The position numbers were made by a program, and so were the translations under genes. From positions 5,696,001 through 5,760,000 of the forward strand of contig OY762069.1 of the NCBI GenBank assembly GCA_963665095.1: 64,000 bases of DNA. Direction: 5' to 3'. The DNA comes from an uncultured Desulfobacter sp. (GTDB lineage: Bacteria; Desulfobacterota; Desulfobacteria; Desulfobacterales; Desulfobacteraceae). Below the pieces are notes generated by a model. The model was given only the letters and a program-made list of their open reading frames with translations, did not search any database and was not told the DNA's origin. Position 1 is the first letter of the stretch. The number at the start of each line of letters is the position of its first letter. Shown here one piece after another: positions 41,678-58,493 of the stretch.

Positions 41678-43345
41678 GTGCAGAAACGTCAAAAGCGATT
41701 CCAGGTACTGGAAGAACGCGCCGTCAATAAAGACGGTTTCATAAAAGAGTGGGAAGAGGTCGGGCTGGTCGCAATGGACAGCAAGAATGACCCGGCTCCC
41801 AGTATTAAAATTGAAAACGGTATGATTGTGGAGATGGACGGTGTTCCCTGTGCTGATTTCTGCATGATCGATACCTTTATCGCCAACCACTGCATTGACG
41901 TGGAAGTGGCACCCAAAGCCATGGCCATTGATTCTCTTGAATATGCCAGAATGCTGGTGGATATCAATGTGCCGGGGGATGAAATAAAGAAACTGGTGCC
42001 GGGTCTTACCCCGGCCAAGATTCTGGATATTCTTAAAAAGATGAACGTGGTTGAGCTGATGATGGCCATGCAGAAACTGCGCTGCCGCAGAACCCCTGCC
42101 AACCAGGCTCATATCACCAATGTCAAGGACTCTCCTGCACTGCTGGCAGCGGATGCGGCCGAAGGCTCCTTCCGTGGTTTCCAGGAACTTGAAACCACCG
42201 TTGGTGTGGCCCGTTACGCCCCCATGAACGCCATTGCCCTTCTTATCGGCGGCCAGGTGGGCTGCAAAGGCACTCTGACCCAGTGCGCCGTTGAGGAGGC
42301 CATGGAGCTTCAGATGGGTATGAAAGGCCTGACAGCCTACGCTGAAACCGTATCTGTTTACGGTACGGATCAGGTGTTTGTTGACGGCGACGATACCCCC
42401 TGGTCCAAGTCTTTCCTGGCATCTGCCTATGCATCCCGCGGTATTAAGATGCGGTTTACCTCAGGCACCGGTTCAGAGGTTCAGATGGGTTTTGCCGAGA
42501 AAAAATCCATGCTCTACCTTGAGATCAAGTGCGTGATGATCACCAAGGGTGCCGGTGTTCAGGGCCTGCAGAACGGCTCCATCTCCTGCGTAGGTGTTCC
42601 CGGTGCGGTTCCCGGCGGCGTTCGTGCCATTCTGGCTGAAAACGTGGCCTCTGTACTGCTGGACCTTGAGGTGGCTTCCGGTAACGACCAGACCTTTACC
42701 CACTCTCCCATCCGTAACACCGCCAGAATGCTCATGCAGTTCCTGCCCGGTACGGACTATATCTTCTCCGGATACTCCGGGGTTCCCAACTATGACAACA
42801 TGTTTGCCGGCTCCACCCATGATTCCGACGATTTTGACGACATGCTCGTACTCCAGCGCGACCTGCAGTGTGACATGGCACTTCGTCCGGTAACCGAAGA
42901 AGAGGTTATTGCCGTCAGAAACAAGGCTGCAAGGGCCATGCAGGCAGTTTTCCAGGAAGTTGGTTTCCCTGCCATCACGGATGATGAGGTAGAACGGGCA
43001 ACATACGCTCACGGTTCCAAAGATATGCTTGACCGTAACCAGCCTGAGGATCTGCGGGCCATCGGAGAGTTCCTCAAATCCGGAAAAACCGGTCTGGATA
43101 TTGTCCGTGCGCTGTACAAACACGGATTTACAGACATTGCAGAAGCGGTTCTTAACATGCTCAAACAAAAGGTTTCCGGTGACTACCTGCATACCTCTGC
43201 TGTTGTTCTGGAAGACTTTAACGTGAAAAGTGCCGTGAACGACCGCAATGATTACCAGGGTCCGGGTACCGGCTATCGTCTTGAAGGCGAACGCTGGGAA
43301 CTGCTGAAAAATATTCCCCAGGCCATCAGCCCGGAAGATTTATAG
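41678..43345 (+). CDS. pduC: B12-dependent diol/glycerol dehydratase large subunit
   Basis: RAVNKDGF, RTPANQAH, ETT..VARYAP, DGDDTPWSK, SGNDQ, DNMFAGS. Confidence 0.96.
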   Translation: MQKRQKRFQVLEERAVNKDGFIKEWEEVGLVAMDSKNDPAPSIKIENGMIVEMDGVPCADFCMIDTFIANHCIDVEVAPKAMAIDSLEYARMLVDINVPGDEIKKLVPGLTPAKILDILKKMNVVELMMAMQKLRCRRTPANQAHITNVKDSPALLAADAAEGSFRGFQELETTVGVARYAPMNAIALLIGGQVGCKGTLTQCAVEEAMELQMGMKGLTAYAETVSVYGTDQVFVDGDDTPWSKSFLASAYASRGIKMRFTSGTGSEVQMGFAEKKSMLYLEIKCVMITKGAGVQGLQNGSISCVGVPGAVPGGVRAILAENVASVLLDLEVASGNDQTFTHSPIRNTARMLMQFLPGTDYIFSGYSGVPNYDNMFAGSTHDSDDFDDMLVLQRDLQCDMALRPVTEEEVIAVRNKAARAMQAVFQEVGFPAITDDEVERATYAHGSKDMLDRNQPEDLRAIGEFLKSGKTGLDIVRALYKHGFTDIAEAVLNMLKQKVSGDYLHTSAVVLEDFNVKSAVNDRNDYQGPGTGYRLEGERWELLKNIPQAISPEDL

Positions 43346-43357
43346 GGAGAGACAAAT

Positions 43358-44017
43358 ATGAAACTCACAGAAGATATGCTAAGGCAGATCATTACGGAAG
43401 TTATGGGGCAGATGCAGACTGGCAGTGCATCCGCACAGGCTTCTGCACCGGTTGCCGGCAGTATTGATGCTGACAGCCCTCTGAATTTTATTGAAAAGGG
43501 GTCTGCCGCAGTTGGAACCAATCCTAAAGAGGTCGTTGTCGGACTTCCTCCGGGGTTCGGTATTACACCCACCAAAACCATCATTAATGTCCCCCACGCC
43601 AAGGTACTTGCAGAAGTTGCCGCAGGTATTGAAGAAGAGGGACTGATCCCGCGGTTTGTTAAAAACTACCAGACAGCTGATGTTGGCTTCCTGGCCCATT
43701 CCGCAGCCCAGTACAGCGGGTCAGGTATTGGCATTGGTATTCTGTCCAGGGGTACGACAGTTATTCATCAGAAAGATCTGCCCCCGCTGCAGAATCTTGA
43801 GCTGTTCCCCCAGGCCCCCCTTGTTGAGGCAGAGACCTTCAGGGCCATCGGCAAGAATGCCGCCAAGTATGCCAAGGGTGAGAACCCCTCTCCGGTGCCG
43901 GTAAAGAACGATCCCATGGCCCGCCCCCGGTATCAGGGTCTTGCCGCCCTCATGCACAACAAAGAGGTGCAATTCTTAAACCCTGCTAAAAAGGTGGTCG
44001 AGGTAGCTCTGGGTTAA
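43358..44017 (+). CDS. pduD: Diol dehydratase medium subunit with N-terminal encapsulation peptide
   Basis: AGIEEEG, SGSGIGIG, HQKDL.PL.NLELFPQAP, IGKNAAKYAKG. Confidence 0.95.
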   Translation: MKLTEDMLRQIITEVMGQMQTGSASAQASAPVAGSIDADSPLNFIEKGSAAVGTNPKEVVVGLPPGFGITPTKTIINVPHAKVLAEVAAGIEEEGLIPRFVKNYQTADVGFLAHSAAQYSGSGIGIGILSRGTTVIHQKDLPPLQNLELFPQAPLVEAETFRAIGKNAAKYAKGENPSPVPVKNDPMARPRYQGLAALMHNKEVQFLNPAKKVVEVALG

Positions 44018-44052
44018 TCCCTGACGCTGCGCGCATACCAAGGAGACAAATA

Positions 44053-44616
44053 ATGGCAAGTTTTACGAAAGATGAAATAGCAGACATCATAAAGACGGTC
44101 GGAAACGGCAGTTCCGCAGATTCACTGGAAAATGCCGTTAGAAACGTTCTGGCACGGCTTCAGGCTGAAGGGCTGACCGCTGCAGCACCAGCAGCAGGGG
44201 CAACGCTTACCGCAGATGACTACCCCTTAGGTGTTAAACGCCGGGACCTGGTGAAGTCCGCCACGGGTAAAACCCTGGATGAAATCACCCTGGACAAGGT
44301 CGTTTCCGGTGAGATTCAGTTTAACGACATCAAAACCCGTCCGGAAACGCTTGATCTGCAGAACCAGATTGCTAAAAGCGTAAACCGCCCCAACCTGGCA
44401 GCCAACCTGAGACGGGCTGGCGAAATGACTCAGATTCCTGATGAGCGGCTTCTGGAAATGTATAATTTCCTGAGGCCCTACCGTGCGACCAAACAGGAAC
44501 TGATTGCCATGGCTGATGAGCTTGAGACCAAGTACAACGCAATTGACTGCGGCAAGCTCGTACGTGAGGCAGCAGATGTTTACGAGAGAAATCATCGGTT
44601 GAAGGGTGACCGGTAA
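44053..44616 (+). CDS. pduE: Diol dehydratase small subunit
   Basis: DYPLG, TGK.LDEIT, N.RRA.E...PD...L..YN.LRPYR, REAA.VY. Confidence 0.95.
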   Translation: MASFTKDEIADIIKTVGNGSSADSLENAVRNVLARLQAEGLTAAAPAAGATLTADDYPLGVKRRDLVKSATGKTLDEITLDKVVSGEIQFNDIKTRPETLDLQNQIAKSVNRPNLAANLRRAGEMTQIPDERLLEMYNFLRPYRATKQELIAMADELETKYNAIDCGKLVREAADVYERNHRLKGDR

Positions 44617-44638
44617 TTAGACGCTTGAGGAGAGTTCG

Positions 44639-46450
44639 ATGCGAATCGCTGGTGTAGATATAGGAAACAACTCAACTGAAGTCGCCGTGGCAGAGATTGA
44701 ACCCGGAAGCATCCGGTTTCTCTCCAGCTCCCTGGTAAGGACCATCGGTCTTAAGGGAACCTTGAGAAATGCCATGTGTGTCATTGACGCTGTTGACCGG
44801 GCCATGGCCGCTGTTTCCATGACAAGAAAGGATCTTGATCTGATCTTGTTAAATAAGGCGACCCCGGTAATTGGCGATGTGGCCATGGAGACCATTACGG
44901 AAACCGTGATCACCGAGTCGGCCATGATCGGCCATAATCCGTCTACACCAGGGGGCTTAGGTTTGGGACAGGGAATCACCGTTGCTTTAGGTGACCTGGA
45001 CAGTTTCTCCGCCCAGGAGCCCTGTATTGTCGTAGTTGACGAAACCTTTGAGTTTGTCGATGTTGCCAGACTCATCAACGCGGCCCAGGCCCGAGGTGTC
45101 AAGATCACAGGCGCGGTTGTGAAGAAGGACGATGGTGTCCTGATTCACAACCGCCTGAATTCTCCCATCCCCATTGTCGATGAAGTTCATTACATAGACA
45201 AGGTGCCCCTGGGCATGCCTGCGGCACTGGAAGTTGCCCGGGTGGGCCGGGCCATTGAAAAGCTGTCCAACCCTTATGATATTGCCACCTTGTTTGATCT
45301 GAGCCCCGAGGATACCCGGCAGATTACACCCATTGCCAGGGCGTTAACCGGAAACCGGTCCGGGGTGGTGATAAAAACGCCGAAAGGGGATATTCAGGAG
45401 CGCAGGATTCCTGCCGGTTCCATCACCCTGATCGGAGAGAAAAATAAAGAAAAAGTCAGTATCGAAGACGGTGCTGACGCCATCATGGAAAAACTTGCCA
45501 GGGTGGCGCCATTGCAGGAAATTCAGTCCGAGGCAGGCACCAACGCGGGCGGCATGTTTGAGCGGGTCAGAACGGTTATGGCTGATCTTACTGACCAGCC
45601 GGTGAGCGAGATCCGTATTCAGGATGTCCTGGCGGTGGATACCCTCCAGCCCCAGAAGGTGCTCGGGGGACTGGCCGGTGAGTTTACGCGCGGCACGGCC
45701 GTGGGCCTGGCCGCCATGGTAATGACCCAGAACATTCCCATGCAGCGCCTGGCTGCCAAGCTTAAAGAGGAGACAGGGGTTCAGGTGGAGATCGGCGGCG
45801 TGGAGGCGGAAATGGCCATCCAGGGCGCTTTGACTACCCCCGGAACCGAGCCGCCCCTGGCCATACTTGACCTTGGGGGTGGTTCCACGGATGCCTCCAT
45901 TATCCACAAGGACGGCACAGTAAAGTCCATTCACATGGCCGGTGCCGGAGACATGGTGACCATGCTCATCAATACGGAGCTTGGCATCAACGATCTTGAC
46001 CTTGCCGAGGATATAAAATGCAACTCCCTGGCCAAAGTGGAGACTCTGTTTCACATGCGCCATGAAAGCGGGTCCGTGGAATTTTTTGATTCCCATCTTG
46101 ACCCGGTTCTGTTTGGGCGTGTTGTTATTTTAAAAGATGACGGGCCTGTGCCCATTCTCCACGATGTGAACCTGAATCAGATTGTCAATATCCGGCGCGG
46201 TGCCAAGGAAAAGGTGTTTGTCAGAAATGCCCTGCGTGCCCTGGAGCAGGTGGCTCCGGGCGGCAATATCCGTCTGATCGGGTTTGTGGCGTTAGTGGGT
46301 GGATCTGCCCTGGACTTTGAGATCCCGGGAATGATTGGAGATGCGTTGGCCGAGTACGGTGTTGTTCTGGGTAAAGGTAATATCCGCGGCACTGAAGGTC
46401 CCAGGAATGCTGTTGCAACTGGTTTGTGTCTCTCCAGGAAGGAGGGATAA
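44639..46450 (+). CDS. pduG: Diol dehydratase reactivase alpha subunit
   Basis: GVDIGN..TE, ETVITES.MIGHNP.TPGG, DLGGGSTDA, GPRNAVATGL. Confidence 0.95.
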   Translation: MRIAGVDIGNNSTEVAVAEIEPGSIRFLSSSLVRTIGLKGTLRNAMCVIDAVDRAMAAVSMTRKDLDLILLNKATPVIGDVAMETITETVITESAMIGHNPSTPGGLGLGQGITVALGDLDSFSAQEPCIVVVDETFEFVDVARLINAAQARGVKITGAVVKKDDGVLIHNRLNSPIPIVDEVHYIDKVPLGMPAALEVARVGRAIEKLSNPYDIATLFDLSPEDTRQITPIARALTGNRSGVVIKTPKGDIQERRIPAGSITLIGEKNKEKVSIEDGADAIMEKLARVAPLQEIQSEAGTNAGGMFERVRTVMADLTDQPVSEIRIQDVLAVDTLQPQKVLGGLAGEFTRGTAVGLAAMVMTQNIPMQRLAAKLKEETGVQVEIGGVEAEMAIQGALTTPGTEPPLAILDLGGGSTDASIIHKDGTVKSIHMAGAGDMVTMLINTELGINDLDLAEDIKCNSLAKVETLFHMRHESGSVEFFDSHLDPVLFGRVVILKDDGPVPILHDVNLNQIVNIRRGAKEKVFVRNALRALEQVAPGGNIRLIGFVALVGGSALDFEIPGMIGDALAEYGVVLGKGNIRGTEGPRNAVATGLCLSRKEG

Positions 46451-46453
46451 GCC

Positions 46454-46840
46454 ATGCCTTCCCCGTTAACGGAAGTGGCCCAGAAGCCTGCTGTCAATAT
46501 TATTATAGCAGGCCCGGTGGATGAAACCATGGTCCAGGCAGTGGAATATGGCCTGGAAGAAGAGGGTATTCCATATGAACGCCGGGCACCTTCCAACCCG
46601 GATAATGCCATGGCATCCGCCAGTCAGGGGGCCAAAGCCTCCCGGATCAATGTCGGCGTCTGTATCCAGTCAAAAAACGGTACGCTGACCGCAGTTTTGC
46701 ATCACAGGGATCTGGCGGAACAGAAGCCGTTGTTCATGCTTGAGCACAGCCAGATATCCATGGATGCACTGGACCGGATCGGCAGAAACGCAGCCAGGCT
46801 TGTGAAAGGCGATCCCTTTCTCATGGCGGATGCGCAATAG
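46454..46840 (+). CDS. pduH: Diol dehydratase reactivase beta subunit
   Basis: GLEEEGIP, S...VG, G.NAARLVKG.PF. Confidence 0.92.
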   Translation: MPSPLTEVAQKPAVNIIIAGPVDETMVQAVEYGLEEEGIPYERRAPSNPDNAMASASQGAKASRINVGVCIQSKNGTLTAVLHHRDLAEQKPLFMLEHSQISMDALDRIGRNAARLVKGDPFLMADAQ

Positions 46841-46904: not shown

Positions 46905-47723
46905 ATGACGCAGATAAAAAGTATAGGCCTGATTGAAACCCTGGGAATGGTAGGGGCTGTGGAAGCGGCGGATGCAGCTGTCAAAGCGGCCAATGTCACG
47001 CTTCTCGGGTATGAGCTCAACGGAGGCGGATACGTAGTGATCAAGCTGACCGGTGACGTGGCAGCTGTCCGGGCCGGTGTCAGTGCGGCTGTTACCACTG
47101 CCGGCAGACTGGGCAATCTTGTCTCCTCCCATGTGATCCCCCGGCCAACCGATCAGATAAATAATACCATTATTAAGAGTGGGGATAATGTGCCGCCCTT
47201 TGATGATCCAAAGGGTACACCACCGTCTAAAGGCAAAAAGCCGTCGCCCAAACCCAAACCATCGGCTCCTGCCAAGTCAGATGCGAAACCTGCGCCTAAA
47301 TCGGAGACGCCAGGTGCGGCAGCCAAGAAATCTGCTGACCAGGCCAAGACCCCTGCCAAACCACCGGAAAAGCAGGCCGAAACAAAGCCGGAACCGGCCA
47401 AGGCCCCTGAAAAATCCGCGCCTGAAAAATCCATCGAGGCAAAACCCATTGAGGAAAAACCGGCGCAGACCAAGGCGGAGACAGCCAAGCCGGCAGCAAA
47501 AAAGCCCGCCCCGGAAAAGAGTGAACCGGCTAAACCGGCTTCCACTAAAACTGAGCCGGCAAAGAAAGAGGCGGATAAACCTGCAGCGCCGGCTAAAACC
47601 GCTGAAACAAAACCGGCGGCAGAAATCAAACCTGCTGCTGCAGAAAAGGCCGATGATAAGAAAACGGCATCAGCGGATTCAAAACCTAAAACCAGTGGCA
47701 GCAGTTCAACCACCAAGAAATAG
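46905..47723 (+). CDS. BMC hexamer protein with ~170-aa Pro/Lys/Ala-rich disordered tail (PduK-like)
   Basis: SIGLIET.G..EAADAAVKAANV..GDVAAV..HVIPRP followed by K-P-A-E repeats. Confidence 0.88.
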   Translation: MTQIKSIGLIETLGMVGAVEAADAAVKAANVTLLGYELNGGGYVVIKLTGDVAAVRAGVSAAVTTAGRLGNLVSSHVIPRPTDQINNTIIKSGDNVPPFDDPKGTPPSKGKKPSPKPKPSAPAKSDAKPAPKSETPGAAAKKSADQAKTPAKPPEKQAETKPEPAKAPEKSAPEKSIEAKPIEEKPAQTKAETAKPAAKKPAPEKSEPAKPASTKTEPAKKEADKPAAPAKTAETKPAAEIKPAAAEKADDKKTASADSKPKTSGSSSTTKK

Positions 47724-47734
47724 GAGCTGATACC

Positions 47735-48340
47735 TTGGATACCCTTCGGGCATATGCGATTGTTGACCGGCTTCAGCCCCAGCTTGCAGGTATTGTGGCA
47801 GCTTCTTCAGCAGGTTTTCTACCCATAAGCGGTGAATCGGCACTGCTTGTTGAGGTGGCCCCGGGCGTCCTTATCAACCGGGCCATTGACCTGGCATTGA
47901 AGGCAAGCCCTGTGCGGATTGGAAAATCCTTTGTTGAACGTCATTTCGGGTATATGGAAGTCCATGCCGGCAGCCAGCAGGATGTACGTTTTGCCGGGGA
48001 GGCCGTTCTTAAAGGCCTGGGATTTTCACTATCGGACAGAACCCGGCCAACGGTACTGACTGCCGAGATTATCCAGAAAGTCAGCCCCTATCACGCCCAG
48101 ATGATGAATATTTTCAGGAACGGCTCTCTGCTGCTGCCAGGAAAGGATTTTTTCACCATGGAGTGTGAACCGGCAGCCTATGTTTTTTATGCGGCCAACG
48201 AGGTGGAAAAGCGGGTGGATATCACCATGGTGGACTGCAACGAGATCGGTGCGGCCGGGCGACTGACAGTCTCCGGGACACCGTCGGAAGTGCTGCAGGC
48301 AAAACGGGTGGCTGTTGAAGCCCTGGAAAACATGAAATAG
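47735..48340 (+). CDS. Permuted double-stacking BMC trimer (CcmP/CsoS1D-type)
   Basis: LR.Y..D.LQPQ.A, EVAPG, VER.FG..E.H, E.EPA.Y...AANE.EK, GA.GRL. Confidence 0.82.
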   Translation: MDTLRAYAIVDRLQPQLAGIVAASSAGFLPISGESALLVEVAPGVLINRAIDLALKASPVRIGKSFVERHFGYMEVHAGSQQDVRFAGEAVLKGLGFSLSDRTRPTVLTAEIIQKVSPYHAQMMNIFRNGSLLLPGKDFFTMECEPAAYVFYAANEVEKRVDITMVDCNEIGAAGRLTVSGTPSEVLQAKRVAVEALENMK

Positions 48341-48349
48341 GTGGCTGCC

Positions 48350-49210
48350 ATGTGTATGTCTGAAATAAATGAACTCATTGGTCAGTTCCGGAAAAGCCTT
48401 TCCCTGGACACGCCGGCAGATCCCCGCGTCTCTTTGTGGGCTGGTGTGGATCTTGGCACCGCCAATATTGTCACGGCCGTGGTGGACGAAAACGGGACAC
48501 CTGTGGCAGGGGTGACCACCCGGTCCGAATCCACGGTAAGGGACGGGCTGGTGTTCGACTACATGGGCACCATGAACATCTTAAAAAAACAGATTCAGAC
48601 CATACGCTCCCACGGATTCGAGATCATGGATGCGGCGGCTGCCTTTCCTCCGGGCACCATGGGCCGCAACCGCCAGGCATTCGGCCATATCCTCAACGGG
48701 GCCGGACTTGAGGCCACAGGGCTGGTGGATGAGCCCAGTGCGGCAGCCCTGGCCCTGGGCATTGATTCCGGGTGTGTGGTGGATATTGGCGGCGGTACCA
48801 CGGGCATCTCCATTCTTGAGGATGGAGAGGTAATCTACTCCGGAGACGAGCCCACCGGCGGTCATCACATTGACCTGGTTATTGCCGGATCCATGGGGAT
48901 ATCCATTGAAGAGGCGGAGTCCATGAAAAATAATCCGGCCCATCAGCCCATGCTTCAGTCCATTGTGATGCCGGTGTTTGAAAAGATGGGCACCATCGTC
49001 AGGAACCATATAAAAGGTTACACGCCTGGAACTATCTATCTTGTGGGCGGCACCTCAGGCTTTCCCGGAGCAGACCAGATTATTGCCAAAGAGACCGGGC
49101 TTCCTGTTTTTATGCCTGATGATCCCCTGCTTGTCACCCCCCTGGGCACGGCATTATACGCGGCCCGGCTGGCAGCGGCAGAAAAAGGGAAAAAGGAGAA
49201 GAAAAGATGA
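48350..49210 (+). CDS. eutJ: EutJ-like Hsp70/actin-fold chaperone
   Basis: GVDLGTA, VRDG...DY, PPGT, DEP.AA, DIGGGTTG, DEPTGG, VTPLG; start uncertain (48341-48356). Confidence 0.88.
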   Translation: MCMSEINELIGQFRKSLSLDTPADPRVSLWAGVDLGTANIVTAVVDENGTPVAGVTTRSESTVRDGLVFDYMGTMNILKKQIQTIRSHGFEIMDAAAAFPPGTMGRNRQAFGHILNGAGLEATGLVDEPSAAALALGIDSGCVVDIGGGTTGISILEDGEVIYSGDEPTGGHHIDLVIAGSMGISIEEAESMKNNPAHQPMLQSIVMPVFEKMGTIVRNHIKGYTPGTIYLVGGTSGFPGADQIIAKETGLPVFMPDDPLLVTPLGTALYAARLAAAEKGKKEKKR

Positions 49211-50055
49211 GTGATGTGACAACGACGCCTCCGGGCCTTGATAAGGCAGCATTTGAAGCCCTGGTGAAAAAGGTGCTTCACGCGGTGGGCGCTGCCATGT
49301 CCGCCCGAACCCCTGATCAGTACCTGCTCACAGTTTTTACCGGCGGTACCGCCGGGTTTAAACAGGCCCTGGCCGGCCTTGAATACCTGATGCTCAACGG
49401 CAGGCGCTTAAGGGTGCTTATGTCTGAAACCTCCGGCCAAATGTATGGAGATGTGGTTGAAAATAAAATTTTAAGCTGGCCCAATGCCTGTCCCATGAAA
49501 ACCGGCGACTGGTTTGCCCAGGTCCAGAAATGCACGGGCGTTGTAGTCCCCATGCTCTCTGTGGCGTCTTTGTCCCGGGTCTGCAGTCTGGCGCCGGATA
49601 CCCTGGCCACCAATATTATCCTCCAGGCACTTTTCATGGGTAAACCCGTGGTGACTGCCATTGATGGTGCTGCTCCGGGCGCTTCCGACCGGGCCGTTCT
49701 CGGGCTGGACAGGGGGACCCCGGCACTGAGTGCCGCCCTGGCCAAGCGTCTGGTTCAGTTATCCGATTTTGGCGCCCGGTTGGCCTGGAGCCATGATTTA
49801 GGGGTTGTCACCCTGGGCGCCCTGAACAAAGCAGACATGCCTGGTCCTGAAATAATTTCCCCACCCCAGCCTGTCGCAGATCCTGCAGCGGTTGCGCCAG
49901 TTTCAGGAGGTGCCATCCCGGTACAGCGGGTGGTGGATGCCAGCCATGTCAGAGTGGCAAAAAATACCGGAGGCGCGATTCACGCGGCCCCTGGTGCGAT
50001 TATTACCCCCCTTGCCTTTGAACTTGCAAAGGAATGGGGCATTGAGATCCGTTAA
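49207..50055 (+). CDS. BMC-associated flavoprotein-family protein with N-terminal encapsulation-like helix
   Basis: FEALVKKVLHAV, FTGG, ALFMGKPV, C-terminal IITPLA..LAKE.GI. Confidence 0.7.
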   Translation: MSDVTTTPPGLDKAAFEALVKKVLHAVGAAMSARTPDQYLLTVFTGGTAGFKQALAGLEYLMLNGRRLRVLMSETSGQMYGDVVENKILSWPNACPMKTGDWFAQVQKCTGVVVPMLSVASLSRVCSLAPDTLATNIILQALFMGKPVVTAIDGAAPGASDRAVLGLDRGTPALSAALAKRLVQLSDFGARLAWSHDLGVVTLGALNKADMPGPEIISPPQPVADPAAVAPVSGGAIPVQRVVDASHVRVAKNTGGAIHAAPGAIITPLAFELAKEWGIEIR

Positions 50056-50114
50056 GGCTTTTTTCATGGAGAGTTAAAACAACAACTCATCTGAGGACAG
50101 GGAAAGGATAGATC

Positions 50115-50387
50115 ATGATAATTGGCAAAATAGTTGGGACTGTTGTGGCCACAAGAAAACACGAAGCCCTTGTGGGTAGCAAAATCCAGGTTGTTCAGGT
50201 GCTCAATCCGGACGAGACTGTGGTTAAAGACCAGAGGATCGTGGCCATTGATACGGTGGGTGCCGGGCCTGGAGAGCTTGTGATCCTGACCACCGGAACC
50301 AATGCTGCCAAGGCGGCTGATAACCCTGATGTCCCTGTGGATGCAGCCATTACCGGCATCATTGATGAAATTGATCTGATTGAATAG
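50115..50387 (+). CDS. pduN: BMC pentamer vertex protein (EutN/CcmL/PduN)
   Basis: GKIVGTVVATRK, A.D.VGAG.GE.V, D.AI.GI.D. Confidence 0.92.
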   Translation: MIIGKIVGTVVATRKHEALVGSKIQVVQVLNPDETVVKDQRIVAIDTVGAGPGELVILTTGTNAAKAADNPDVPVDAAITGIIDEIDLIE

Positions 50388-50415
50388 ATCTAATTGAATA
50401 GAAGGACATTTTTCC

Positions 50416-50979
50416 ATGAGTATTTATACCGGCGGCGGAGACAAAGGCAAAACAAGCCTGCTTTCAGGGGAAAGGGTTTCAAAGATTGACCCCATGGTGG
50501 AGGCTTACGGCACCCTTGACGAGCTGACAGCCCAGCTTGGCGTGTGCCGGGCATATCTGGCCCAGGACGAGGCATGCGCCTCTTTTGTCAATGTTATTGT
50601 GGAAATACAAAGAGAACTGTTCCGGGCCGGCATGCAGCTGTCCAGTGTGCCCTCTCACTGGAAAAAACTGTCAGCACCCATTACCATGGACGATGTCAAA
50701 CATCTTGAAAAAATAGTGGATATTCTGGATGAGGCATCCGGACTGCCGCACTTTTTCGTCAGTCCTGGCCGTACCCTTGCCGGCGCTGCTTTTCATGTGG
50801 CCAGGACCGTGTGCCGCAGGGCGGAAAGACGAACCATTACCGCAGCTGCCGGGCACCCGGAGTATGAGTTTGTTTTAAAATATCTGAATCGCTTGTCCGA
50901 CCTCCTATTTTCCCTTTCCTGGGCGGTTGAGACCCGGATTCTCATTACCAGGGAGTTGTCCAATGGAAATCAGCGTTAA
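50416..50979 (+). CDS. pduO: ATP:cob(I)alamin adenosyltransferase (PduO N-domain)
   Basis: IYT.GD.G.T, AYGT.DEL, ARTVCRRAER, YLNRLSD. Confidence 0.93.
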   Translation: MSIYTGGGDKGKTSLLSGERVSKIDPMVEAYGTLDELTAQLGVCRAYLAQDEACASFVNVIVEIQRELFRAGMQLSSVPSHWKKLSAPITMDDVKHLEKIVDILDEASGLPHFFVSPGRTLAGAAFHVARTVCRRAERRTITAAAGHPEYEFVLKYLNRLSDLLFSLSWAVETRILITRELSNGNQR

Positions 50980-51532
50980 TATCAACAATGACCTGGCCCG
51001 GGTGCTGGCCCGCTTTGCCAGGGCAAAGGCCTGTGAAATCAAGGTCCCAATGGTGATCGCCTTTGCGGATGCTGTTGGCGGACTGGTTCATTTCCAGCGT
51101 ATGGACAAGGCATTGCCGGTGAGTTCCGACATTGCCAGGAACAAAGCCTTTACCTCTGCGGCTCTCAGGATTCCCACCCACGTGGTCGGGCCCCTGACCC
51201 AGCCGGGCAAGGAGCTTTACGGCCTTGAACTGACCAACCAGGGAAGACTGGTAATTTTCGGCGGGGGATTTCCCCTGACCTTTTCCGGCCGGGTCATCGG
51301 CGCCATCGGCGTCAGCGGCGGGTCTGTGGATGAGGACATGTCCGTGGCAAAAGCCGCCGTGGATGCCCTGGAACAGATGGAAAAGATCAGCGGCCCTCTG
51401 GCACGGGTGCTGCCTGACACGCCAGGTGAACAGATGCCTGATCTGGCGGTCAGGGTGGCCAAAATGGGGCTGCCCATGGGCATCAGTCCGGATATCATTG
51501 AAGGGGCGTTTTACCTGATAAGTAAATCTTAA
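50963..51532 (+). CDS. GlcG/HbpS heme-binding protein (PduO C-domain, separate gene)
   Basis: D..G......RMD.A...S..IA..KAFT, GGG.P, IGAIGVSGG...ED. Confidence 0.88.
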   Translation: MEISVNINNDLARVLARFARAKACEIKVPMVIAFADAVGGLVHFQRMDKALPVSSDIARNKAFTSAALRIPTHVVGPLTQPGKELYGLELTNQGRLVIFGGGFPLTFSGRVIGAIGVSGGSVDEDMSVAKAAVDALEQMEKISGPLARVLPDTPGEQMPDLAVRVAKMGLPMGISPDIIEGAFYLISKS

Positions 51533-51634: not shown

Positions 51635-53083
51635 ATGAGTGAAAATTTAAGCAGCGTCAGCGTCAACGAAAACGTACTGGAAAAAATGATCACCAACGTA
51701 TTCATGGACATGATGAAGGAAAAGGTGAACGGAAAAACACCGGTTGCCGCCAAAGAAGGCAAGGTGTGTGACGGCCTGTTTGACACCGTTGATGAAGCGG
51801 TGGCCGCAGCCAAAGCAGCCCAGAAGCGCCTGGTTTCCCTCTCCCTTGAAAAACGGGAAGTGATCATTGGTGCTGTCCGCAGGGTGAGCCTGGAGAACAA
51901 CAAAGCCTGGGCCCAAGCCACTGTGGAAGAGACCACCTTCGGCCGTGTGGAGGACAAGATCCAGGAGAACATTCTGGCGGCCACAAAAACGCCGGGCACC
52001 GAAGATCTGGTGGCCTGGGCCAAATCCGGGGATTGCGGCCTGACGCTGGTTGAGTACGGTCCATATGGCGTTATCGGCGCCATCACGCCCACCACCAACG
52101 CCACCGGCACCCTGATTCACAACACCATCTCCATGATTGCCGGCGGAAACACCGTGGTTTACAATGTCCATCCCTCTGCCGTCAACATCAGTATTGAAGT
52201 GATAAAATGCCTTCATAAGGCCATTGTGGACGCCGGCGGACCTGAAGGCTGCATCGGCATGGTCCGCAAGCCCACCATGGACACGGCCTCAGAACTGATG
52301 CACCACAAGGATATTAAACTGCTGGCAGCCACCGGCGGTCCCGGTGTTGTCGATGCGGTGCTTCGCTCCGGGAAAAAAGCCATTGGCGCCGGGGCCGGCA
52401 ACCCGCCGGTTGTTGTGGATGAGACTGCCTGTATCCGCAGGGCAGCCGAAGATATCATCAACGGCCACTCCATTAACAACAACATCTTCTGCATCTCTGA
52501 AAAAGAGGTGCTTGCGGTGGATGAGATCGCAGACACTCTGATCAAGTTCATGGCGGAAACCGGCAAAGCTGCAATATTGACAGAAGAAGAAGCAGACCTG
52601 GTTACCAAACTCGTTGTCAACGGCAAGGAAATTAACAGAAAGTTTGTGGGAAAAAATGTTCAGGTGATCCTTGATGCTGCCGGTGTCACCCGGTTTTCAG
52701 GAAATGAGAAACTGCGCTGCGCCGTGTTTGAAGCAGATAAAAGCCATCCCCTGGTATGGATTGAACAGCTCATGCCTGTTCTGCCTGTGGTCCGGGTTAA
52801 AGATGTCTGGGAAGGCATTGATCTGGCTGTGGAAGTGGAACAGGGCAACCGCCATACTGCCATGATGCACTCCACCAATGTGGAACATCTGACAGCCATG
52901 GCCCGGGTGATTGAAACCACTATTTTTGTTAAAAACGGTCCCTCTTACAACGGCATCGGTTTCGGTGGCGAAGGCCATACCACCTTTACCATTGCAGGCC
53001 CCACCGGCGAGGGCATTACCTCTGCCAGGTCTTTCTGCAGGCAGCGCCGGTGTGTACTCAAAGACGGCTTCCGCATTGTTTAA
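51635..53083 (+). CDS. pduP: CoA-acylating aldehyde dehydrogenase with encapsulation peptide
   Basis: PYGVIGAI.P.TN, ATGGPGVV, GAGAGNPP, NNI.C..EK, E.LMP, TFTIA.PTGEG. Confidence 0.95.
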   Translation: MSENLSSVSVNENVLEKMITNVFMDMMKEKVNGKTPVAAKEGKVCDGLFDTVDEAVAAAKAAQKRLVSLSLEKREVIIGAVRRVSLENNKAWAQATVEETTFGRVEDKIQENILAATKTPGTEDLVAWAKSGDCGLTLVEYGPYGVIGAITPTTNATGTLIHNTISMIAGGNTVVYNVHPSAVNISIEVIKCLHKAIVDAGGPEGCIGMVRKPTMDTASELMHHKDIKLLAATGGPGVVDAVLRSGKKAIGAGAGNPPVVVDETACIRRAAEDIINGHSINNNIFCISEKEVLAVDEIADTLIKFMAETGKAAILTEEEADLVTKLVVNGKEINRKFVGKNVQVILDAAGVTRFSGNEKLRCAVFEADKSHPLVWIEQLMPVLPVVRVKDVWEGIDLAVEVEQGNRHTAMMHSTNVEHLTAMARVIETTIFVKNGPSYNGIGFGGEGHTTFTIAGPTGEGITSARSFCRQRRCVLKDGFRIV

Positions 53084-53120: not shown

Positions 53121-54467
53121 ATGACACATCCGCTTGTGGAAAAAATAAAGGCTGCCGGCGTGGTGGGCGGTGGCGGCGCGGGATTTCCCACCCATGTGAA
53201 GGTGAATGCCAAGGCAGACACGGTTCTGATCAACGGTGCCTCCTGCGAACCTTTGCTGGAATCCGACATCTATCTGATGGAAAACTTCGGCGACCAGATG
53301 ATCCAGGGCCTTGCCCTGGTCATGGACGCCGTGGGCGCAGATACCGGCAAGATCGGCATCAAGGCCAAGCACGAAAAGGCTGTGGCCATTCTGGAAAAAC
53401 ATGTAAAAAACAAGAGCCTTACCCTGGGCCGCAATATCACTGTATTCCCCATGAGGGATTTTTATCCGGCAGGGGATGAACATGTTCTGGTCAATGAGGC
53501 CACCGGACGTATCGTCCCCCAGGGCGGTCTTCCCCTGGAAGTGGGCGCCGTGGTCTCCAACTCCGAGTCCATGTACAACATTTTTCATGCATCCAGTGAC
53601 GCACCTGTTACGCACAGGACCCTGAATGTGGCAGGAGAGGTCAATAAGCCCATTGTGTTACGGGTGCCGGTTGGGACCCCGATTGCTCATGTGATCAAAC
53701 TTGCCGGCGGCATGCGCCGCCCCGGCTGCCGGGTGATTGACGGCGGTCCCATGATGGGGCATGTGCTGGATGACCCGGACAAGGCCTTTGTCACCAAGAC
53801 CACCTCCGGCATTATTGTGCTTCCGGCAGATCATAATGTAATCAAGGGCAAGGTGACAGATATCAGTCAGCTTCTGCGCATCACGGATCTTGCCTGCTGC
53901 CAGTGTACCCTTTGCACCGAGCTTTGTCCGCGGTATCAGCTGGGCCATAATCTTCATCCCCATCTGATCATGCGCTCCATTGCCCTGCCCGATGACCACC
54001 CCATTAAAAAGCAGGCGCTGCTCTGCTCTGAATGCGGGATCTGTGAAAAATGGGCCTGCCCCCTTGGCCTCTCCCCCAGGGAGGTCAACCGGGCCATCAA
54101 GCGGTCCCAGAAAATCCGCCCCAATGAAGTGGGCGGGGCAAACCTTGACCGGCATCCGTTTACAGACATGCGCAGGGTACCTGTGCAGCGGCTTCTGGCA
54201 AAGCTCGATCTTCTGGCTTATAAGGTCCATCCCACGCCGGTGACAGAGGTTGAGGAGCCTGAGCTTGTGGGCCTGTATTTAAGACAGCACATTGGCGCGC
54301 CGGCTGTTGCCATTGTTAAACCTGGCGATGCGGTCACCTGTGGCCAGGTGGTTGCCGAAATACCGGAAAAAGCGCTGGGCGCCAGGATCCATGCATCAGT
54401 GACAGGACAGGTTGTTGACGTGGATGCGGAAAAGATTCTTGTGAAAAAGGAGAATACCAATGTTTAA
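53121..54467 (+). CDS. pduS: Cobalamin reductase / RnfC-like Fe-S flavoprotein
   Basis: AGVVG.GGAGFPTHVK, N...CEP, GGPMMG, two 4Fe-4S motifs, QHIGAP. Confidence 0.92.
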   Translation: MTHPLVEKIKAAGVVGGGGAGFPTHVKVNAKADTVLINGASCEPLLESDIYLMENFGDQMIQGLALVMDAVGADTGKIGIKAKHEKAVAILEKHVKNKSLTLGRNITVFPMRDFYPAGDEHVLVNEATGRIVPQGGLPLEVGAVVSNSESMYNIFHASSDAPVTHRTLNVAGEVNKPIVLRVPVGTPIAHVIKLAGGMRRPGCRVIDGGPMMGHVLDDPDKAFVTKTTSGIIVLPADHNVIKGKVTDISQLLRITDLACCQCTLCTELCPRYQLGHNLHPHLIMRSIALPDDHPIKKQALLCSECGICEKWACPLGLSPREVNRAIKRSQKIRPNEVGGANLDRHPFTDMRRVPVQRLLAKLDLLAYKVHPTPVTEVEEPELVGLYLRQHIGAPAVAIVKPGDAVTCGQVVAEIPEKALGARIHASVTGQVVDVDAEKILVKKENTNV

Positions 54468-55011
54468 GTCAATGGGGTTATTGGAACTCAACAGCGTGGC
54501 CAGGGGCATCCTCACTGCCGATGAAATGGTCAAGGAGGCCACAGTGGATCTGGTCATGGCCCGTCCTGTCTGCCCCGGGCGCTACCTGATCATGGTGTCA
54601 GGGGAGACGGCAGCGGTAAAGCGTTCTGTGGATAAAGGCAAGATCATGGCCGAGCAGTTCATCGCGGATTATTTTGTGCTCACCCATATTCACGAGGCTG
54701 TTTTTCCTGCCATCAGCGGCGCCACGATCATAGGCGAAATCAGTGCCATCGGCGTTATTGAGACCTACTCCTCCTCATCCGCTGTTGTGGCAGCGGACAA
54801 GGCTGTAAAAGCTGCCAATGTGGAACTGGTGAATATCCGCCTGGCATCAGGCCTTGCCGGTAAGGCCGTGGTGACGCTGACCGGAAAGATTGCGGCTGTA
54901 AAAGCCGCTGTTGAATCCGGCTGCAAGATGTTAGAGGAGACAGGGCTGCTTGTGGCGCAGTCTGTTCTCTCTTCACCCAGCGAAGAGATGAAAAAACAGA
55001 TTTTATTATAA
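54460..55011 (+). CDS. pduT: BMC trimer shell protein, Fe-S binding
   Basis: E..S.A.G....D.M.K, CPGRY, AD.AVKAANV, GLAGK. Confidence 0.92.
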   Translation: MFKSMGLLELNSVARGILTADEMVKEATVDLVMARPVCPGRYLIMVSGETAAVKRSVDKGKIMAEQFIADYFVLTHIHEAVFPAISGATIIGEISAIGVIETYSSSSAVVAADKAVKAANVELVNIRLASGLAGKAVVTLTGKIAAVKAAVESGCKMLEETGLLVAQSVLSSPSEEMKKQILL

Positions 55012-55022: not shown

Positions 55023-57269
55023 ATGATAGATTTAGACGCGCTTTTGGACCAACAGCTCAACGGGTTGCTTTCAACCCCGGGCAGCGTCAAACCGGTGATT
55101 GTTTTCCCCGAGGCCAATGACCCCAGGATCATCGCTGCAGCCTCGGGCCTTGTGAACCAGGCCCGGGTGGTACTTATCGGAGATATCGTTGAAATCCGGG
55201 CCCTGTGTGATTATAAAAGCGCTGAACTGCTCTGCCCCCGGGATAAGTTTTTCAATAAGGTGCAGGTGGTCAATCCGGGAACCAGTGACCTGGCCCCTGA
55301 GCTGGCACTGGGCCTGATTGAGGCCTCCAAAGGTCGGAAATGGGAATTTACGCCTGAAGAAGCAGCCAGAAAAATATTAAATCCGGTGTTCTTCGGGGCC
55401 ATGCTGGTACGCAAAGGATATGCAGATGCCTGTCTTGGCGGTGTGGCCAACTCCACCAAGGATTTTCTGGCCCCCTGTCTGCGGCTGATAAAATCCAATG
55501 GCACTGCCTTTGAGATGGGCCTGTTCTGCCTGCCGGACCAGGATCCCCAGTTGTGGGAAAACCATGCGGTGATGTTTGCCGATGTGGCGTTGAACCTGAA
55601 ACCGTCGGCCGAGCAGCTGGCTGATATTGCAGTAGGCGCCTGTAAAACAATGCGGGATGTGTTTCCTGTTTCGGTCTTGTCCGAAATCAACGGGGCCATG
55701 ATCTCCTACTCCACCAAGGGGTCAGGGCAGGGGCCAACGGTTTCAACCATCCGAGAGGCTGAACCGCTGGCCGCTGAGAAGCTGACTGCCCTGAAACAGG
55801 CTGATCCGGTGTACGACAGTATCTCCATTACCAGTGAACTGCAGATCTCCGTGGCCCTGTCCAGGGAGGCTGCTGAAGTCAAGCTCAAGAACCGGATCGA
55901 GGAATTCCAGGCCGCAGGCAAGGCCAATGTACTGATTGTGCCGGGGCTTGACGAAGGCAATATGCTCTACCATCTGTTCAACACCCAGTATCCCGCGGCC
56001 CAGAGTTCTCTCATCATGGGCGGCATGGACGGGCAGGTGCTGGATTACTCCCGGGGCTCCAGCGTGGTTCAGGTGATCAGGGGCGCAAAGCTTTTGCTGC
56101 TGACCCGGATCAAGGCTTCCAAGCCGCTGGTCAGGACCTCCCCGTTATTTCCCAGTCCCAGAATCCTGACGCTGAATCCCGGTTCCGTATCCACCCATGT
56201 GGCGGTGTTTGACGGCGAAATCACCATACTCAACACCGTGATTGAACATGCGGCCTCCCAGTCCGGTGACGGGGCTGATCCCTGCATCCGGGCCCGCGAA
56301 CGCTTAAAAGATGTCAAGATAGTGCTGGAGAAAAACCAGATCAGCCCGGACGCCTTTGCCATGATCATGTCCAGGGGCGGCATGCTGGCTGATGCCAGTG
56401 CCGGGGTATATGAAATTACCCCTGAGGTGCTGGTTGCCCTCAAAGATAATGCCATTGAGGATCATCCTGCCAATTACGGCCCGTTCATGGCAAGGCAGAT
56501 GTCCTGCCAGGGAACCATCCCCGCCTACATGGTGGACTGCCCCTCCATTAATGAATTGTCCGACGAGTACCGGCTGACCGGCATCAAGGGCCTTGAGAAG
56601 ACTCCCATCTGGCATGCATTGTCCCAGCGCCAGGCAGTGCGCATGTATGCGGATATGGCCAATGAAAGGGAACAGGACCTTAATCTGATTGTGGCCCACT
56701 TAGGATCGGGCATCTCCATCGGGTCCCACAAAAAGGGGCGGTGCATTCATGTGGAAAATGCTATTTTTGACGGTCCCATGGGGCCGTCCAGGGTGGGCAG
56801 CCTGCCGGTGGAAGCCGTTATTGAGCTGTGCTATGCCGGTATTGATAAAAATGTCCTCAAAAAGATGCTCAGCGGTGCCGGCGGTCTTTCCAGCTATTTC
56901 GGCACCCATGACATGAGACAGATTCAGGAGATGCTTCAGGCTGATCCTGAAGTTGACAAGGTTGTTTCTGCCCTGGCTGCGGGCATTGCCGCCCAGATTC
57001 TTTCCCGGCTCTCTGATTTTTCACCTGAAATCTGCGACCAGATTCTTCTGACCGGCCGCCTGTGCCTCTCTTCTCTCCTGCTGGATAAAATTCTTGAAAA
57101 GCTGACAGTGGTCTGCGACAAGATCACTGTCTTTCCGGGATCCTTTGAGGCCGAGGCGCTTAGAGATGCGGCCATGCGCGTGTACAAAGGTATTGAACAT
57201 GTGCATAAACTTGCTCCCATGGATAAAGTCGTATGGGAAGCATATAAGCGCCAATGCGAAAACATTTAA
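55023..57269 (+). CDS. Phosphotransacylase (PTA/PTB) - butyrate kinase fusion
   Basis: N half VFPE..D.R, FAD, SYSTKGS, ANVL..P.L..GN, D.SRG; C half NPGS.ST, RGG, HAL.Q, VAHLG.GIS, GP..P.R.G.LP. Confidence 0.85.
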   Translation: MIDLDALLDQQLNGLLSTPGSVKPVIVFPEANDPRIIAAASGLVNQARVVLIGDIVEIRALCDYKSAELLCPRDKFFNKVQVVNPGTSDLAPELALGLIEASKGRKWEFTPEEAARKILNPVFFGAMLVRKGYADACLGGVANSTKDFLAPCLRLIKSNGTAFEMGLFCLPDQDPQLWENHAVMFADVALNLKPSAEQLADIAVGACKTMRDVFPVSVLSEINGAMISYSTKGSGQGPTVSTIREAEPLAAEKLTALKQADPVYDSISITSELQISVALSREAAEVKLKNRIEEFQAAGKANVLIVPGLDEGNMLYHLFNTQYPAAQSSLIMGGMDGQVLDYSRGSSVVQVIRGAKLLLLTRIKASKPLVRTSPLFPSPRILTLNPGSVSTHVAVFDGEITILNTVIEHAASQSGDGADPCIRARERLKDVKIVLEKNQISPDAFAMIMSRGGMLADASAGVYEITPEVLVALKDNAIEDHPANYGPFMARQMSCQGTIPAYMVDCPSINELSDEYRLTGIKGLEKTPIWHALSQRQAVRMYADMANEREQDLNLIVAHLGSGISIGSHKKGRCIHVENAIFDGPMGPSRVGSLPVEAVIELCYAGIDKNVLKKMLSGAGGLSSYFGTHDMRQIQEMLQADPEVDKVVSALAAGIAAQILSRLSDFSPEICDQILLTGRLCLSSLLLDKILEKLTVVCDKITVFPGSFEAEALRDAAMRVYKGIEHVHKLAPMDKVVWEAYKRQCENI

Positions 57270-57284
57270 TTGAAAGTTGCAAAA

Positions 57285-58493
57285 ATGAAAGTACTTGTTA
57301 TCAATTCAGGCAGTTCCTCCCTGAAGTATAAAATGTTCGATATGGGTGGACCCAGGGTGATCTGTTCCGGCCTGATTGAACGCATTGGCAGTCCGGAAAG
57401 CTGCCTGACCCATTGCCGGTATACAGATGACGGCCCTGGAGAGAAAATCCAGATATTCGAAAATTTTGACAATCACACCAAGGCCATCCAGAAGGTGGCC
57501 TCTTTACTGATGGACGGGGATGATCCGCTGATCAAGTCAGCAGACGACCTGGCCGCCATCGGACACCGGGTGGCCCAGGGCGGTGAAATTTTCCACAAAA
57601 ATTGTATTGTGGACGCCAGGGCCATTGAGGGTATCCGGGACAATATTGTACTGGCACCGCTGCATAACCCGGCCAATCTGTCCGGCATTGAAGCGGCCAT
57701 GGAGATGTTTCCCTCAGTGCCGTCTGTGGCGGTGTTTGACACACTTTTTGCCAGCAGTATTCCCGATTATGTTTACCGGTATGCACTGCCGTCATCCTAT
57801 TACAGTGATTACAAGGTCAGGCGGTATGGCTTCCACGGCACCTCCCATGCATTTGTCACCCGTAAACTGGCACAGCTCATGGGAAAGCCTGTTGAAGAGA
57901 TGGACAATATCGTCTGCCACCTTGGCAACGGCAGTTCCATGACTGCGGTTAAAGGCGGGGTATGCCAGGAGACTTCCATGGGCATGACGCCGACGGCCGG
58001 CCTGATTATGGGGACCCGGTGCGGGGATATTGACCCTTCCCTGCCGGCGTATATTGCCTCATGTACCGACCAGACAGCCGCTGAAGTCCAGACCATTCTG
58101 GACCGGGAAAGCGGGCTTGCTGGGGTGTGCGGCATGAATGATATGCGTGATATCCACAAGGCCATGGCTTCCGGGGATGACAATGCCCGGCTGGCCTTTG
58201 AGATGCTTTGTCACGGCATTAAGAAGTTTATCGGTGCCTACTATGCAGTACTTGGCCGTCTTGATGCCATTGCCTTTACCGCCGGCATCGGTGAAAATGA
58301 CACCGAAGTCCGGGGCAAATCCCTGGAAGGGCTTGAAAATCTCGGGATCATAGTTGACCGGGAAGCCAATGCCGGCTTAAGGGGAAAGTCCGGCCGGATT
58401 TCAACCAAAGAGAGCGCCGTGGAAGTCTGGGTCGTGCCCACGGATGAAGAACTTGAGATTGCTTCCATCAGCCGGGACCTTGTAAATGCATAA
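57285..58493 (+). CDS. ackA: Acetate/propionate kinase
   Basis: INSGSSSLKY, GHR, APLHNP, VFDT, YGFHGTSH, HLGNG, GTRCGD, FTAGIGEN, PTDEE. Confidence 0.93.
   Translation: MKVLVINSGSSSLKYKMFDMGGPRVICSGLIERIGSPESCLTHCRYTDDGPGEKIQIFENFDNHTKAIQKVASLLMDGDDPLIKSADDLAAIGHRVAQGGEIFHKNCIVDARAIEGIRDNIVLAPLHNPANLSGIEAAMEMFPSVPSVAVFDTLFASSIPDYVYRYALPSSYYSDYKVRRYGFHGTSHAFVTRKLAQLMGKPVEEMDNIVCHLGNGSSMTAVKGGVCQETSMGMTPTAGLIMGTRCGDIDPSLPAYIASCTDQTAAEVQTILDRESGLAGVCGMNDMRDIHKAMASGDDNARLAFEMLCHGIKKFIGAYYAVLGRLDAIAFTAGIGENDTEVRGKSLEGLENLGIIVDREANAGLRGKSGRISTKESAVEVWVVPTDEELEIASISRDLVNA

Follow-up and report, generated by a model that had tools for sequence, protein, structure and literature searches.

What frees coenzyme A (CoA) in a propanediol-utilization (PDU) metabolosome whose locus holds no PduL? 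The question is raised by the window, a stretch of 64,000 nucleotides from an uncultured Desulfobacter sp. (GenBank assembly GCA_963665095.1, contig OY762069.1, positions 5,696,001 to 5,760,000 of the forward strand), in which a gene of a bacterial microcompartment (BMC) operon encodes a phosphotransacylase (Pta) joined to a butyrate kinase (Buk) in a single protein, P0001. The reading that we favour, with about even confidence, is that the Pta half would work in the place of PduL, that the kinase half would be blind to ADP, and that the acetate kinase (AckA) encoded next to the fusion would make the ATP. The fusion itself is old and mostly not linked to BMC loci, and one clade of it (the PDU clade) has been recruited to PDU loci.

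The open reading frame (ORF) of P0001 is a single frame without an internal stop. Its parts are as follows.

55023..57269, + strand: Pta-Buk fusion ORF, 748 aa, P0001 (frame, Pfam/NCBIfam, AlphaFold2, Foldseek)
55023..56108, + strand: phosphotransacylase half, residues 1-362 (alignment to MtPta)
55032..55070, + strand: the Pta fold's first helix, residues 4-16 (family pattern, hydrophobic moment, AlphaFold2)
56043..56072, + strand: DYSRGSSVVQ motif, containing Q350 (sequence, clade alignment)
56157..57206, + strand: butyrate-kinase-fold half, residues 379-728 (PRK03011, alignment to MtAck)
56175..56198, + strand: PHOSPHATE1 loop NPGSVSTH, with Lys14 changed to His392 (alignment to MtAck)
57051..57062, + strand: ADENOSINE motif TGRL, with Gly331 changed to Arg679 (alignment to MtAck)

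An earlier note on this DNA, made from the sequence, had described both domains in one chain, and the domain searches agree. PF01515 (PTA_PTB) matches residues 23-353 with 160 bits against a cut-off of 24 (Pfam), and the PRK03011 butyrate kinase model matches residues 380-728 with 296 bits against a cut-off of 222 (NCBIfam). Both halves fall below the NCBIfam equivalogs, the Pta half with 142 of 311 bits for TIGR00651 and 159 of 310 bits for PRK09653, and the kinase half below the cut-off of TIGR02707; by NCBIfam the N-terminal half is Pta-like and not phosphotransbutyrylase (Ptb)-like. Among solved structures the nearest is T. maritima Buk2 (E ~1e-57), together with canonical Ptas (E 1e-31 to 1e-18). 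In an AlphaFold2 model built from a 65-sequence alignment both domains are folded (mean pLDDT 91.3, pTM 0.87), and Foldseek matches this model to Buk2 (TMt 0.86-0.90) and to Pta (TMt 0.79-0.86), with MaeB Pta domains also among the matches. The three altered motifs listed in the earlier note are all present: DYSRGSSVVQ at D341-Q350, ELQISVA at E272-A278 and NPGSVSTH at N385-H392. Full-length relatives are conserved and under purifying selection (dN/dS 0.07-0.16), which rules out a private read-through under relaxed selection or an assembly artefact.

The Pta half, compared in MtPta numbering taken from the 1QZT alignment and two citing papers, keeps the essential triad D307, S309 and R310 as D341, S343 and R344, invariant in 18/18 sequences of alignment A2. 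It also retains Q274, K287, N313 and Y316 (MtPta Q244, K257, N279 and Y282). The replacements are D316 to Q350, R87 to S102, R133 to A150, and D246 to S276 together with K283 to H317. Those at R87, R133, D246 and K283 are family-wide, whereas Gln at the Asp316 position is found in 19/19 PDU-clade sequences and in 2/82 other fusions. The altered Pta motifs thus stand as described, with Asp316 to Gln fixed in the clade, but ELQISVA is not specific to BMC loci: the Ser/His pair at 246/283 occurs in 89/101 fusions, so that the change goes with Lys283 to His and is ruled out as a BMC-specific or catalytic one. By its spacing, the S276/H317 pair appears to match the Asp217-Lys254 dimer bridge described for CaPTB (PMC9706017).

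Reported mutants of P. gingivalis Pta give some measure of these changes. There D309A, S311A and R312A abolish activity, while D318A keeps 11%, R89A 42% and R135A 79% (PMC6461089); an active Ptb, that of C. acetobutylicum, has Thr at the Asp316 position (PMC9706017). Because the triad that is essential in P. gingivalis Pta is intact in P0001, and because D318A leaves part of the activity (PMC6461089), the Pta half is likely active, and it is probably slowed rather than killed by the change of Asp316 to Gln.

The kinase half, with its residue register checked against the neighbouring AckA and a published alignment, retains N385, S388, S390, R451, H481, D505, H531, H559, R590 and E709 (MtAck N7, S10, S12, R91, H123, D148, H180, H208, R241 and E384). 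Its acyl pocket is Buk-like, with Gly at the Val93 position. What has changed is the nucleotide side. Lys14, which presumably has a specific role in catalysis, is His392, and Gly331 in the ADENOSINE motif is Arg679, the more telling change and one absent from the earlier note. Among 119 stand-alone Buk representatives, position 14 is Lys or Arg in 116 and position 331 is Gly in 97; both are changed in a single one. Residues of PHOSPHATE1 are reported to matter for acetate kinase, and G331Q lowers the activity of MtAck ~117-fold (PMC4390882). Since both positions are replaced in P0001, a combination so rare among Buks, and since a change at Gly331 is so costly in MtAck, the kinase half is likely nucleotide-blind. 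Position 211 (Ser562) was also considered as a diagnostic residue and rejected, Ser being present there in 25/119 ordinary Buks. The suggestion of a partly catalytically dead scaffold therefore holds for the nucleotide site of the kinase half and fails for the Pta half, whose essential triad is intact.

The two halves have also diverged at different rates within the PDU clade. The Pta half is 60-89% identical to P0001, the kinase half only 15-47% in 12/17 members, and in several members the kinase half has lost R91, R241 and 43-111 residues. In four pairs compared by the Nei-Gojobori method, three of them near saturation, dN/dS is 0.07-0.13 for the Pta half and 0.13-0.16 for the kinase half, lower for Pta in 4/4; the unsaturated pair (G091 and G005) gives 0.071 for Pta, 0.126 for Buk, 0.083 for AckA and 0.132 for PduO. 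Constraint is weaker on the kinase half than on the Pta half, but the kinase half is not drifting.

Positions 40467 to 58493 hold an operon-like run of genes in which the fusion comes last but one. The other genes of the run, and the putative regulators beside it, are these.

37298..39792, − strand: sensor kinase with a PocR domain, and LuxR response regulator, oriented divergently to the operon
40467..41659, + strand: PduA-like and PduB-like shell genes (Pfam)
41678..46840, + strand: B12-dependent diol dehydratase PduCDE and reactivase PduGH (Pfam, NCBIfam)
46905..51532, + strand: BMC-H protein with a long tail, BMC-T protein, EutJ, an unassigned ORF, EutN/CcmL pentamer, PduO adenosyltransferase and a HbpS/GlcG-like protein
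51635..53083, + strand: PduP CoA-acylating aldehyde dehydrogenase, the acyl-CoA source (PRK15398, 638.6 bits against a cut-off of 403)
53121..55011, + strand: PduS-like reductase and PduT-like tandem shell protein, 11 bases before the fusion
57270..58493, + strand: canonical acetate kinase AckA, with NSGSSSLK, HLGNG and FTAGIGEN intact

With its B12 diol dehydratase, reactivase, PduP and BMC-H/T/P shell genes all found, this is a PDU metabolosome locus, and the divergent sensor kinase and response regulator are likely its regulator. Pfam finds no PduL among the ORFs of the run 40467-58493; the sole PF06130 domain in the window's genome is fused to acetate kinase at another locus, and PF06130 occurs in 0/5 PDU-bearing relatives searched whole (G005, G091, G145, G216 and G788), three of which carry the fusion. 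In the colinear locus of G145, a canonical long Pta lies directly after pduT. Because the locus has no PduL, the relatives have no PF06130 and a canonical Pta sits at the same place in G145, we place the fusion in the slot of PduL, as had been proposed for it. In PMC4784909, PduL is given as the phosphotransacylase (PTAC) of PDU loci and Pta for EUT1 loci only.

The conventional AckA noted earlier does adjoin the fusion, directly 3′ of it. The order pduP-pduS-pduT-fusion-ackA is kept in 4/4 Desulfobacterales loci (the window, two other fusion genomes and the Desulfobacteraceae metagenome-assembled genome L005), and in all four the adjoining AckA retains every nucleotide motif. Among 401 genomes sampled from the order, the full-length fusion is found in 3, the window's genome included, and the diol dehydratase large subunit in 12. 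The comparison loci are 13 regions from 10 fusion-less genomes, with shell genes in 4, two of which extend past pduT.

Some further features of the locus and its genome may be recorded here. The PDU-linked AckA (57270-58493) has HRVAQGG in place of HRVVHGG in 4/4 loci, and the His after DTxF is missing. The unassigned 282-aa ORF at 49207-50055 has no Pfam match and a weak one to TIGR02536, and stands at the same position in all colinear PDU loci seen. The BMC-H protein at 46905-47723 carries a Pro/Ala/Lys-rich C-terminal tail of ~170 aa. No alcohol dehydrogenase (PduQ) is found among the ORFs of 40467-58493, the rest of the genome not having been searched for one; a locus without PduQ would fit full oxidation of the aldehyde, with electrons passing to respiration. 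Short overlapping ORFs at 34800-35800 of the window resemble, by eye, broken transposase pieces. Elsewhere in the genome, a BMC-domain gene stands alone with the gene of a small P-loop protein, EutP/PduV-like by eye, behind it (G000:C1:43166-43995, − strand), a possible satellite of the PDU locus.

The N-terminus of P0001 had been read as an encapsulation-like peptide (EP). It is instead the ordinary first helix of the Pta fold. The pattern M-x-D-[LI]-x-x-x-[LI]-x-x-Q-[LI] is shared by stand-alone Pta forms and by the 82 fusions that do not belong to the PDU clade; of the latter, 82/82 have Leu or Ile at position 4 and 82/82 Leu, Ile or Val at position 12. The helix is ordered in the AlphaFold2 model (pLDDT 93) and leads straight into the first strand, with no linker between it and the core, whereas the EP-like N-termini of PduB, PduD, PduE and PduP precede Ala/Pro/Ser-rich linkers. 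Its hydrophobic moment is 0.38, against 0.55-0.70 for those four N-termini from the same locus and 0.38-0.67 for six non-BMC homologues. An encapsulation peptide is thereby ruled out, and for that reason the enzyme may act outside the shell or at it.

Most relatives of P0001 are found away from microcompartments. A protein search returned 437 matches, of which the best 120 were listed and the top 71 are Pta-Buk-type relatives; a scan of GTDB genomes gave at least 80 loci; at least 30 of these carry the complete fusion, and 8 or more named phyla are represented. A metagenome scan built from the PDU clade gave 9 loci, none from that clade. When the window's BMC proteins were used as tblastn queries, shell genes appeared at 1/39 fusion loci (30 GTDB and 9 metagenome) and at none of the other 38, an absence that is weak for 8 of the 30 GTDB loci, each shorter than 10 kb. 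The fusion is thus widespread outside BMC loci, an outcome that the earlier note had named as telling against its own proposal. For the more distant members of the PDU clade the genomic context rests on one record, P0067. This NCBI record is labelled as an ostracod protein and joins pieces of PduP, PduS, PduT and the fusion; its probable origin is a bacterial contig to which a eukaryotic gene caller was applied.

A reciprocal pattern of loss runs through the 101 distinct fusions that remain after 6 duplicates were dropped. Both halves are canonical in 43; the Pta triad is missing and the kinase canonical in 28; K14 is missing and the Pta triad intact in 29, of which 28 also lack G331; one sequence is truncated, and none lacks both catalytic signatures. 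As kin are not independent, this is a pattern and not a test. With 33 of the 101 rows under LG+G4, the K14 label needs three changes on the Pta tree and on a kinase tree made without the motif columns, and a single origin of the changed nucleotide pocket is rejected by the approximately unbiased test (one clade, p 0.0003). With the motif columns left in, a FastTree of the kinase half groups all pocket-changed sequences (support 0.40/0.89).

On the Pta tree the sister of the PDU clade (support 100/99) is a clade canonical in both halves, found behind a molybdenum-enzyme operon in 3 loci: L002, L133 and L134 have their fusions directly behind a three-gene molybdenum enzyme of the xanthine dehydrogenase family. 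A group of non-BMC fusions (P0042-44, P0047, P0052, P0053, P0061, P0063 and L135-L137) has a scrambled PHOSPHATE1, with K14 mostly Glu, and a changed G331, while R91, H123, D148, H180, R241 and E384 are all kept; the group represents one or two further origins of this pattern. In Geothrix-type fusions (L006-L008, L010-L030 and P0068-P0071) the Pta half has lost S309 and/or R310 and the kinase is canonical. A separate Ptb-sized PF01515 gene lies near 8/24 Geothrix-type loci (Pfam on 65 chosen neighbours) and near 4 more by clustering, and these fusions are candidates for MaeB-like, acyl-CoA-sensing butyrate kinases. Complete loss of the kinase half is suggested by P0123-P0131, stand-alone Pta proteins of 372-376 aa from the same subfamily, some on long contigs, that the Pta tree places within the fusions.

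Other arrangements were met in the course of these searches. The fusion lies behind an IlvD-type dehydratase in L140 and L141, the former also having an aldehyde:ferredoxin oxidoreductase and a class III aminotransferase. What looked like a fusion in G135 is in fact two adjacent genes, pta then buk. The window's genome carries two further transferase-kinase fusions: an acetate kinase-PduL fusion with an N-terminal extension of ~190 aa, outside any BMC locus (G000:C1:1117922-1120333, + strand), and an 821-aa protein with a Buk-type and then a Ptb-type domain (G000:C1:5005792-5008257, − strand).

In the pathway that we propose, PduCDE would convert the diol to the aldehyde and PduP the aldehyde to acyl-CoA, the Pta half would turn acyl-CoA, probably propionyl- or acetyl-CoA, into acyl-phosphate and free CoA, and the adjoining AckA would turn acyl-phosphate into acid and ATP. 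The kinase half, apparently inherited from the widespread ancestral fusion and being lost in parts of the PDU clade, would serve as an acyl-phosphate-binding or structural unit, most likely non-catalytic or nearly so and poor at using ADP or ATP. Several observations weigh against this proposal. Asp316 is Asp in 152/155 canonical Ptas, and with R87, R133 and K283 replaced as well, Pta activity could be low. In the 7 nearest full-length members, a set that omits the truncated P0008 and the decayed P0009, the residues of the acyl-phosphate and Mg side of the kinase half do not vary at all (8/8), where 146 of 350 columns overall are constant, and R679 is invariant in 7/7. The dN/dS of the kinase half (0.13-0.16) is still that of purifying selection and similar to that of PduO; such constraint would be expected of a catalytic role still in use more than of a vestige. 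Nor must the slot be filled, as the colinear locus of G216 has no acyltransferase after pduT, and two canonical long Ptas in the window's genome could do the same job.

Four other readings were weighed. The earlier note proposed a single-chain channel in which both halves are active and acyl-CoA is taken to acid and ATP, perhaps with longer acyl groups than those of AckA. Most catalytic residues of the kinase are indeed kept, both halves are under purifying selection, the model's pTM points to domains held in a fixed arrangement, the acyl pocket resembles that of Buk and 43 of the 101 family members are canonical in both halves. Against this, K14 and G331 are both replaced, the latter by Arg, where the smaller G331Q is already so damaging to MtAck (PMC4390882); a canonical AckA is kept alongside in 4/4 loci, and the kinase half decays within the clade. 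We regard the channel as rather improbable for the PDU clade, where these replacements leave it unsupported, and it may hold for the 43 both-canonical fusions, which lie outside BMC loci wherever their context is seen. It is also quite doubtful, though MaeB provides a precedent (PMC7902834) and MaeB Pta domains are among the Foldseek matches, that the Pta half, itself without catalytic activity, serves as an acyl-CoA sensor or scaffold of the MaeB kind, the chemistry being left to a housekeeping Pta. The replacement of D316, R87, R133, K283 and D246 and the two canonical Ptas of the genome would suit such a role, but the D/S/R triad is invariant in the clade, and a dead Pta looks otherwise in this family, as in the 28 members that lack S309 and/or R310, often with a Ptb-like gene nearby. 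A sensor would also need an output, yet it is the kinase half that decays or vanishes while the Pta half stays conserved.

The remaining two readings keep the Pta half active and give the kinase half a different acceptor. It could be an active Pi/PPi-type kinase, converting acyl-phosphate and Pi to acid and PPi, convergent with the acetate kinase (ACK) of Entamoeba. This enzyme is described as the only known PPi-ACK, with K14 changed to T, N211 to T and G331 to Q, and putative bacterial relatives of it also lack K14 (PMC5517563). P0001 is changed at the same three positions (to H, S and R) with ten catalytic residues kept, and so shares the mark of a lost Lys14 with a bulky residue at Gly331; the catalytic residues and R679 are invariant in the 7 near members, and the stem branch that leads into the PDU clade is long, 0.71 for the kinase half against 0.39 for Pta. 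On the other side, neither MtAck nor E. coli ACK came to use PPi when the pocket was closed, and two marks of the PPi-ACK, an extra Gly in PHOSPHATE2 and an Asp before Q323 (PMC5517563), are absent from P0001, which reads HLGSG and TGRL; many ordinary Buks also have Ser at 211, and R91/R241 are lost in P0009 and in the more distant members of the PDU clade. An H+-PPase is not found in the window's genome (97% complete) or in G788 and is present in G005 and G091, so that its co-occurrence forms no pattern across the four and was set aside as support. Additional PPi would oppose ATP sulfurylase in a sulfate reducer, which also counts against such a kinase. We consider it unlikely, if worth keeping in view, and likewise its suggested role, a nucleotide-free pull on CoA recycling alongside the AckA that forms ATP. 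Very unlikely, in our judgement, is an acyl-phosphatase that passes the phosphoryl group to water, so that in sum the fusion would hydrolyse acyl-CoA and release CoA under ADP limitation: the acyl-phosphate side is kept and the nucleotide side changed in two or three separate lineages, as such an enzyme might have it, but it would waste the energy that the adjoining AckA could conserve, and we know of no acyl-phosphatase of the ASKHA fold.

Full-text searches, judged by title and abstract and covering literature outside subscription papers, returned no published study of a fusion between Pta and butyrate kinase, whether or not linked to microcompartments, and the locus-description file of the BMC catalogue (PMC8217296) nowhere contains the term "butyrate kinase". 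Some family members have been named "phosphotransacetylase/butyrate kinase" by JGI; the architecture is annotated, but not studied in the searchable literature. Both domains and the pathway are of known kinds; new are the family as such, the reciprocal decay within it, its use in place of PduL and a pocket like that of the PPi-ACK. On our preferred reading, a sulfate-reducer PDU metabolosome would have a Pta-type enzyme in the slot of PduL, and the family, repeatedly resolving to one working half, offers a natural series on what fusion and channelling buy. It also supplies natural variants for two questions of enzymology, the weight of Asp316 in Pta and the choice between ATP and PPi in acetate and butyrate kinases, the latter being of particular value as reciprocal mutagenesis has so far failed. 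Should the kinase half use Pi/PPi instead of ADP/ATP, it would be the first Buk-branch enzyme and the first bacterial microcompartment enzyme to do so, a second and independent solution for comparison with Entamoeba ACK, and the fusion would be a nucleotide-free machine from acyl-CoA to acid and PPi, paired with the ATP-forming AckA.

The likeness to known systems differs from one part of P0001 to another. With Pta/EutD (PF01515, EC 2.3.1.8) the N-terminal half shares the fold, the triad and the residues at Q244, K257, N279 and Y282, but at ~30% identity it lies on a long separate branch with D316Q, R87S, R133A and D246S/K283H. A Pta-type PTAC in a BMC locus has its precedent in EUT1 metabolosomes (PMC4784909), from which P0001 differs by its fusion to a kinase and by its PDU locus. 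PduL (PF06130) and the known Ack-PduL fusions, for which channelling has been proposed (PMC4784909), would have the same reaction and the same place in the pathway; the fold of PduL is unrelated, and BMC PduL has the encapsulation peptide that P0001 lacks. MaeB likewise joins a Pta-fold domain to another enzyme, an analogy that is closest for the 28 triad-less family members, since in P0001 the triad is intact and it is the partner domain that is altered. The kinase half has the fold and most of the catalytic residues of butyrate kinase (T. maritima Buk2, 1SAZ/1X9J) and passes PRK03011, and differs by K14 to H, G331 to R and its place behind a Pta domain. It is changed at the same positions 14, 211 and 331 as the E. 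histolytica PPi-ACK (4H0O), with the acyl-phosphate-side residues kept, yet it lies on the Buk and not the Ack branch, has H/S/R in place of T/T/Q, and lacks the Gly insertion and the Asp. The locus as a whole, judged from the catalogue text, most resembles the PDU1D loci of Sutter et al. 2021, catalogued in Proteobacteria including Desulfatibacillum, a relative within the Desulfobacterales (PMC8217296): it shares their B12 diol dehydratase, PduP, PduS/T and shell set, and differs in having neither a PduL nor an alcohol dehydrogenase gene.

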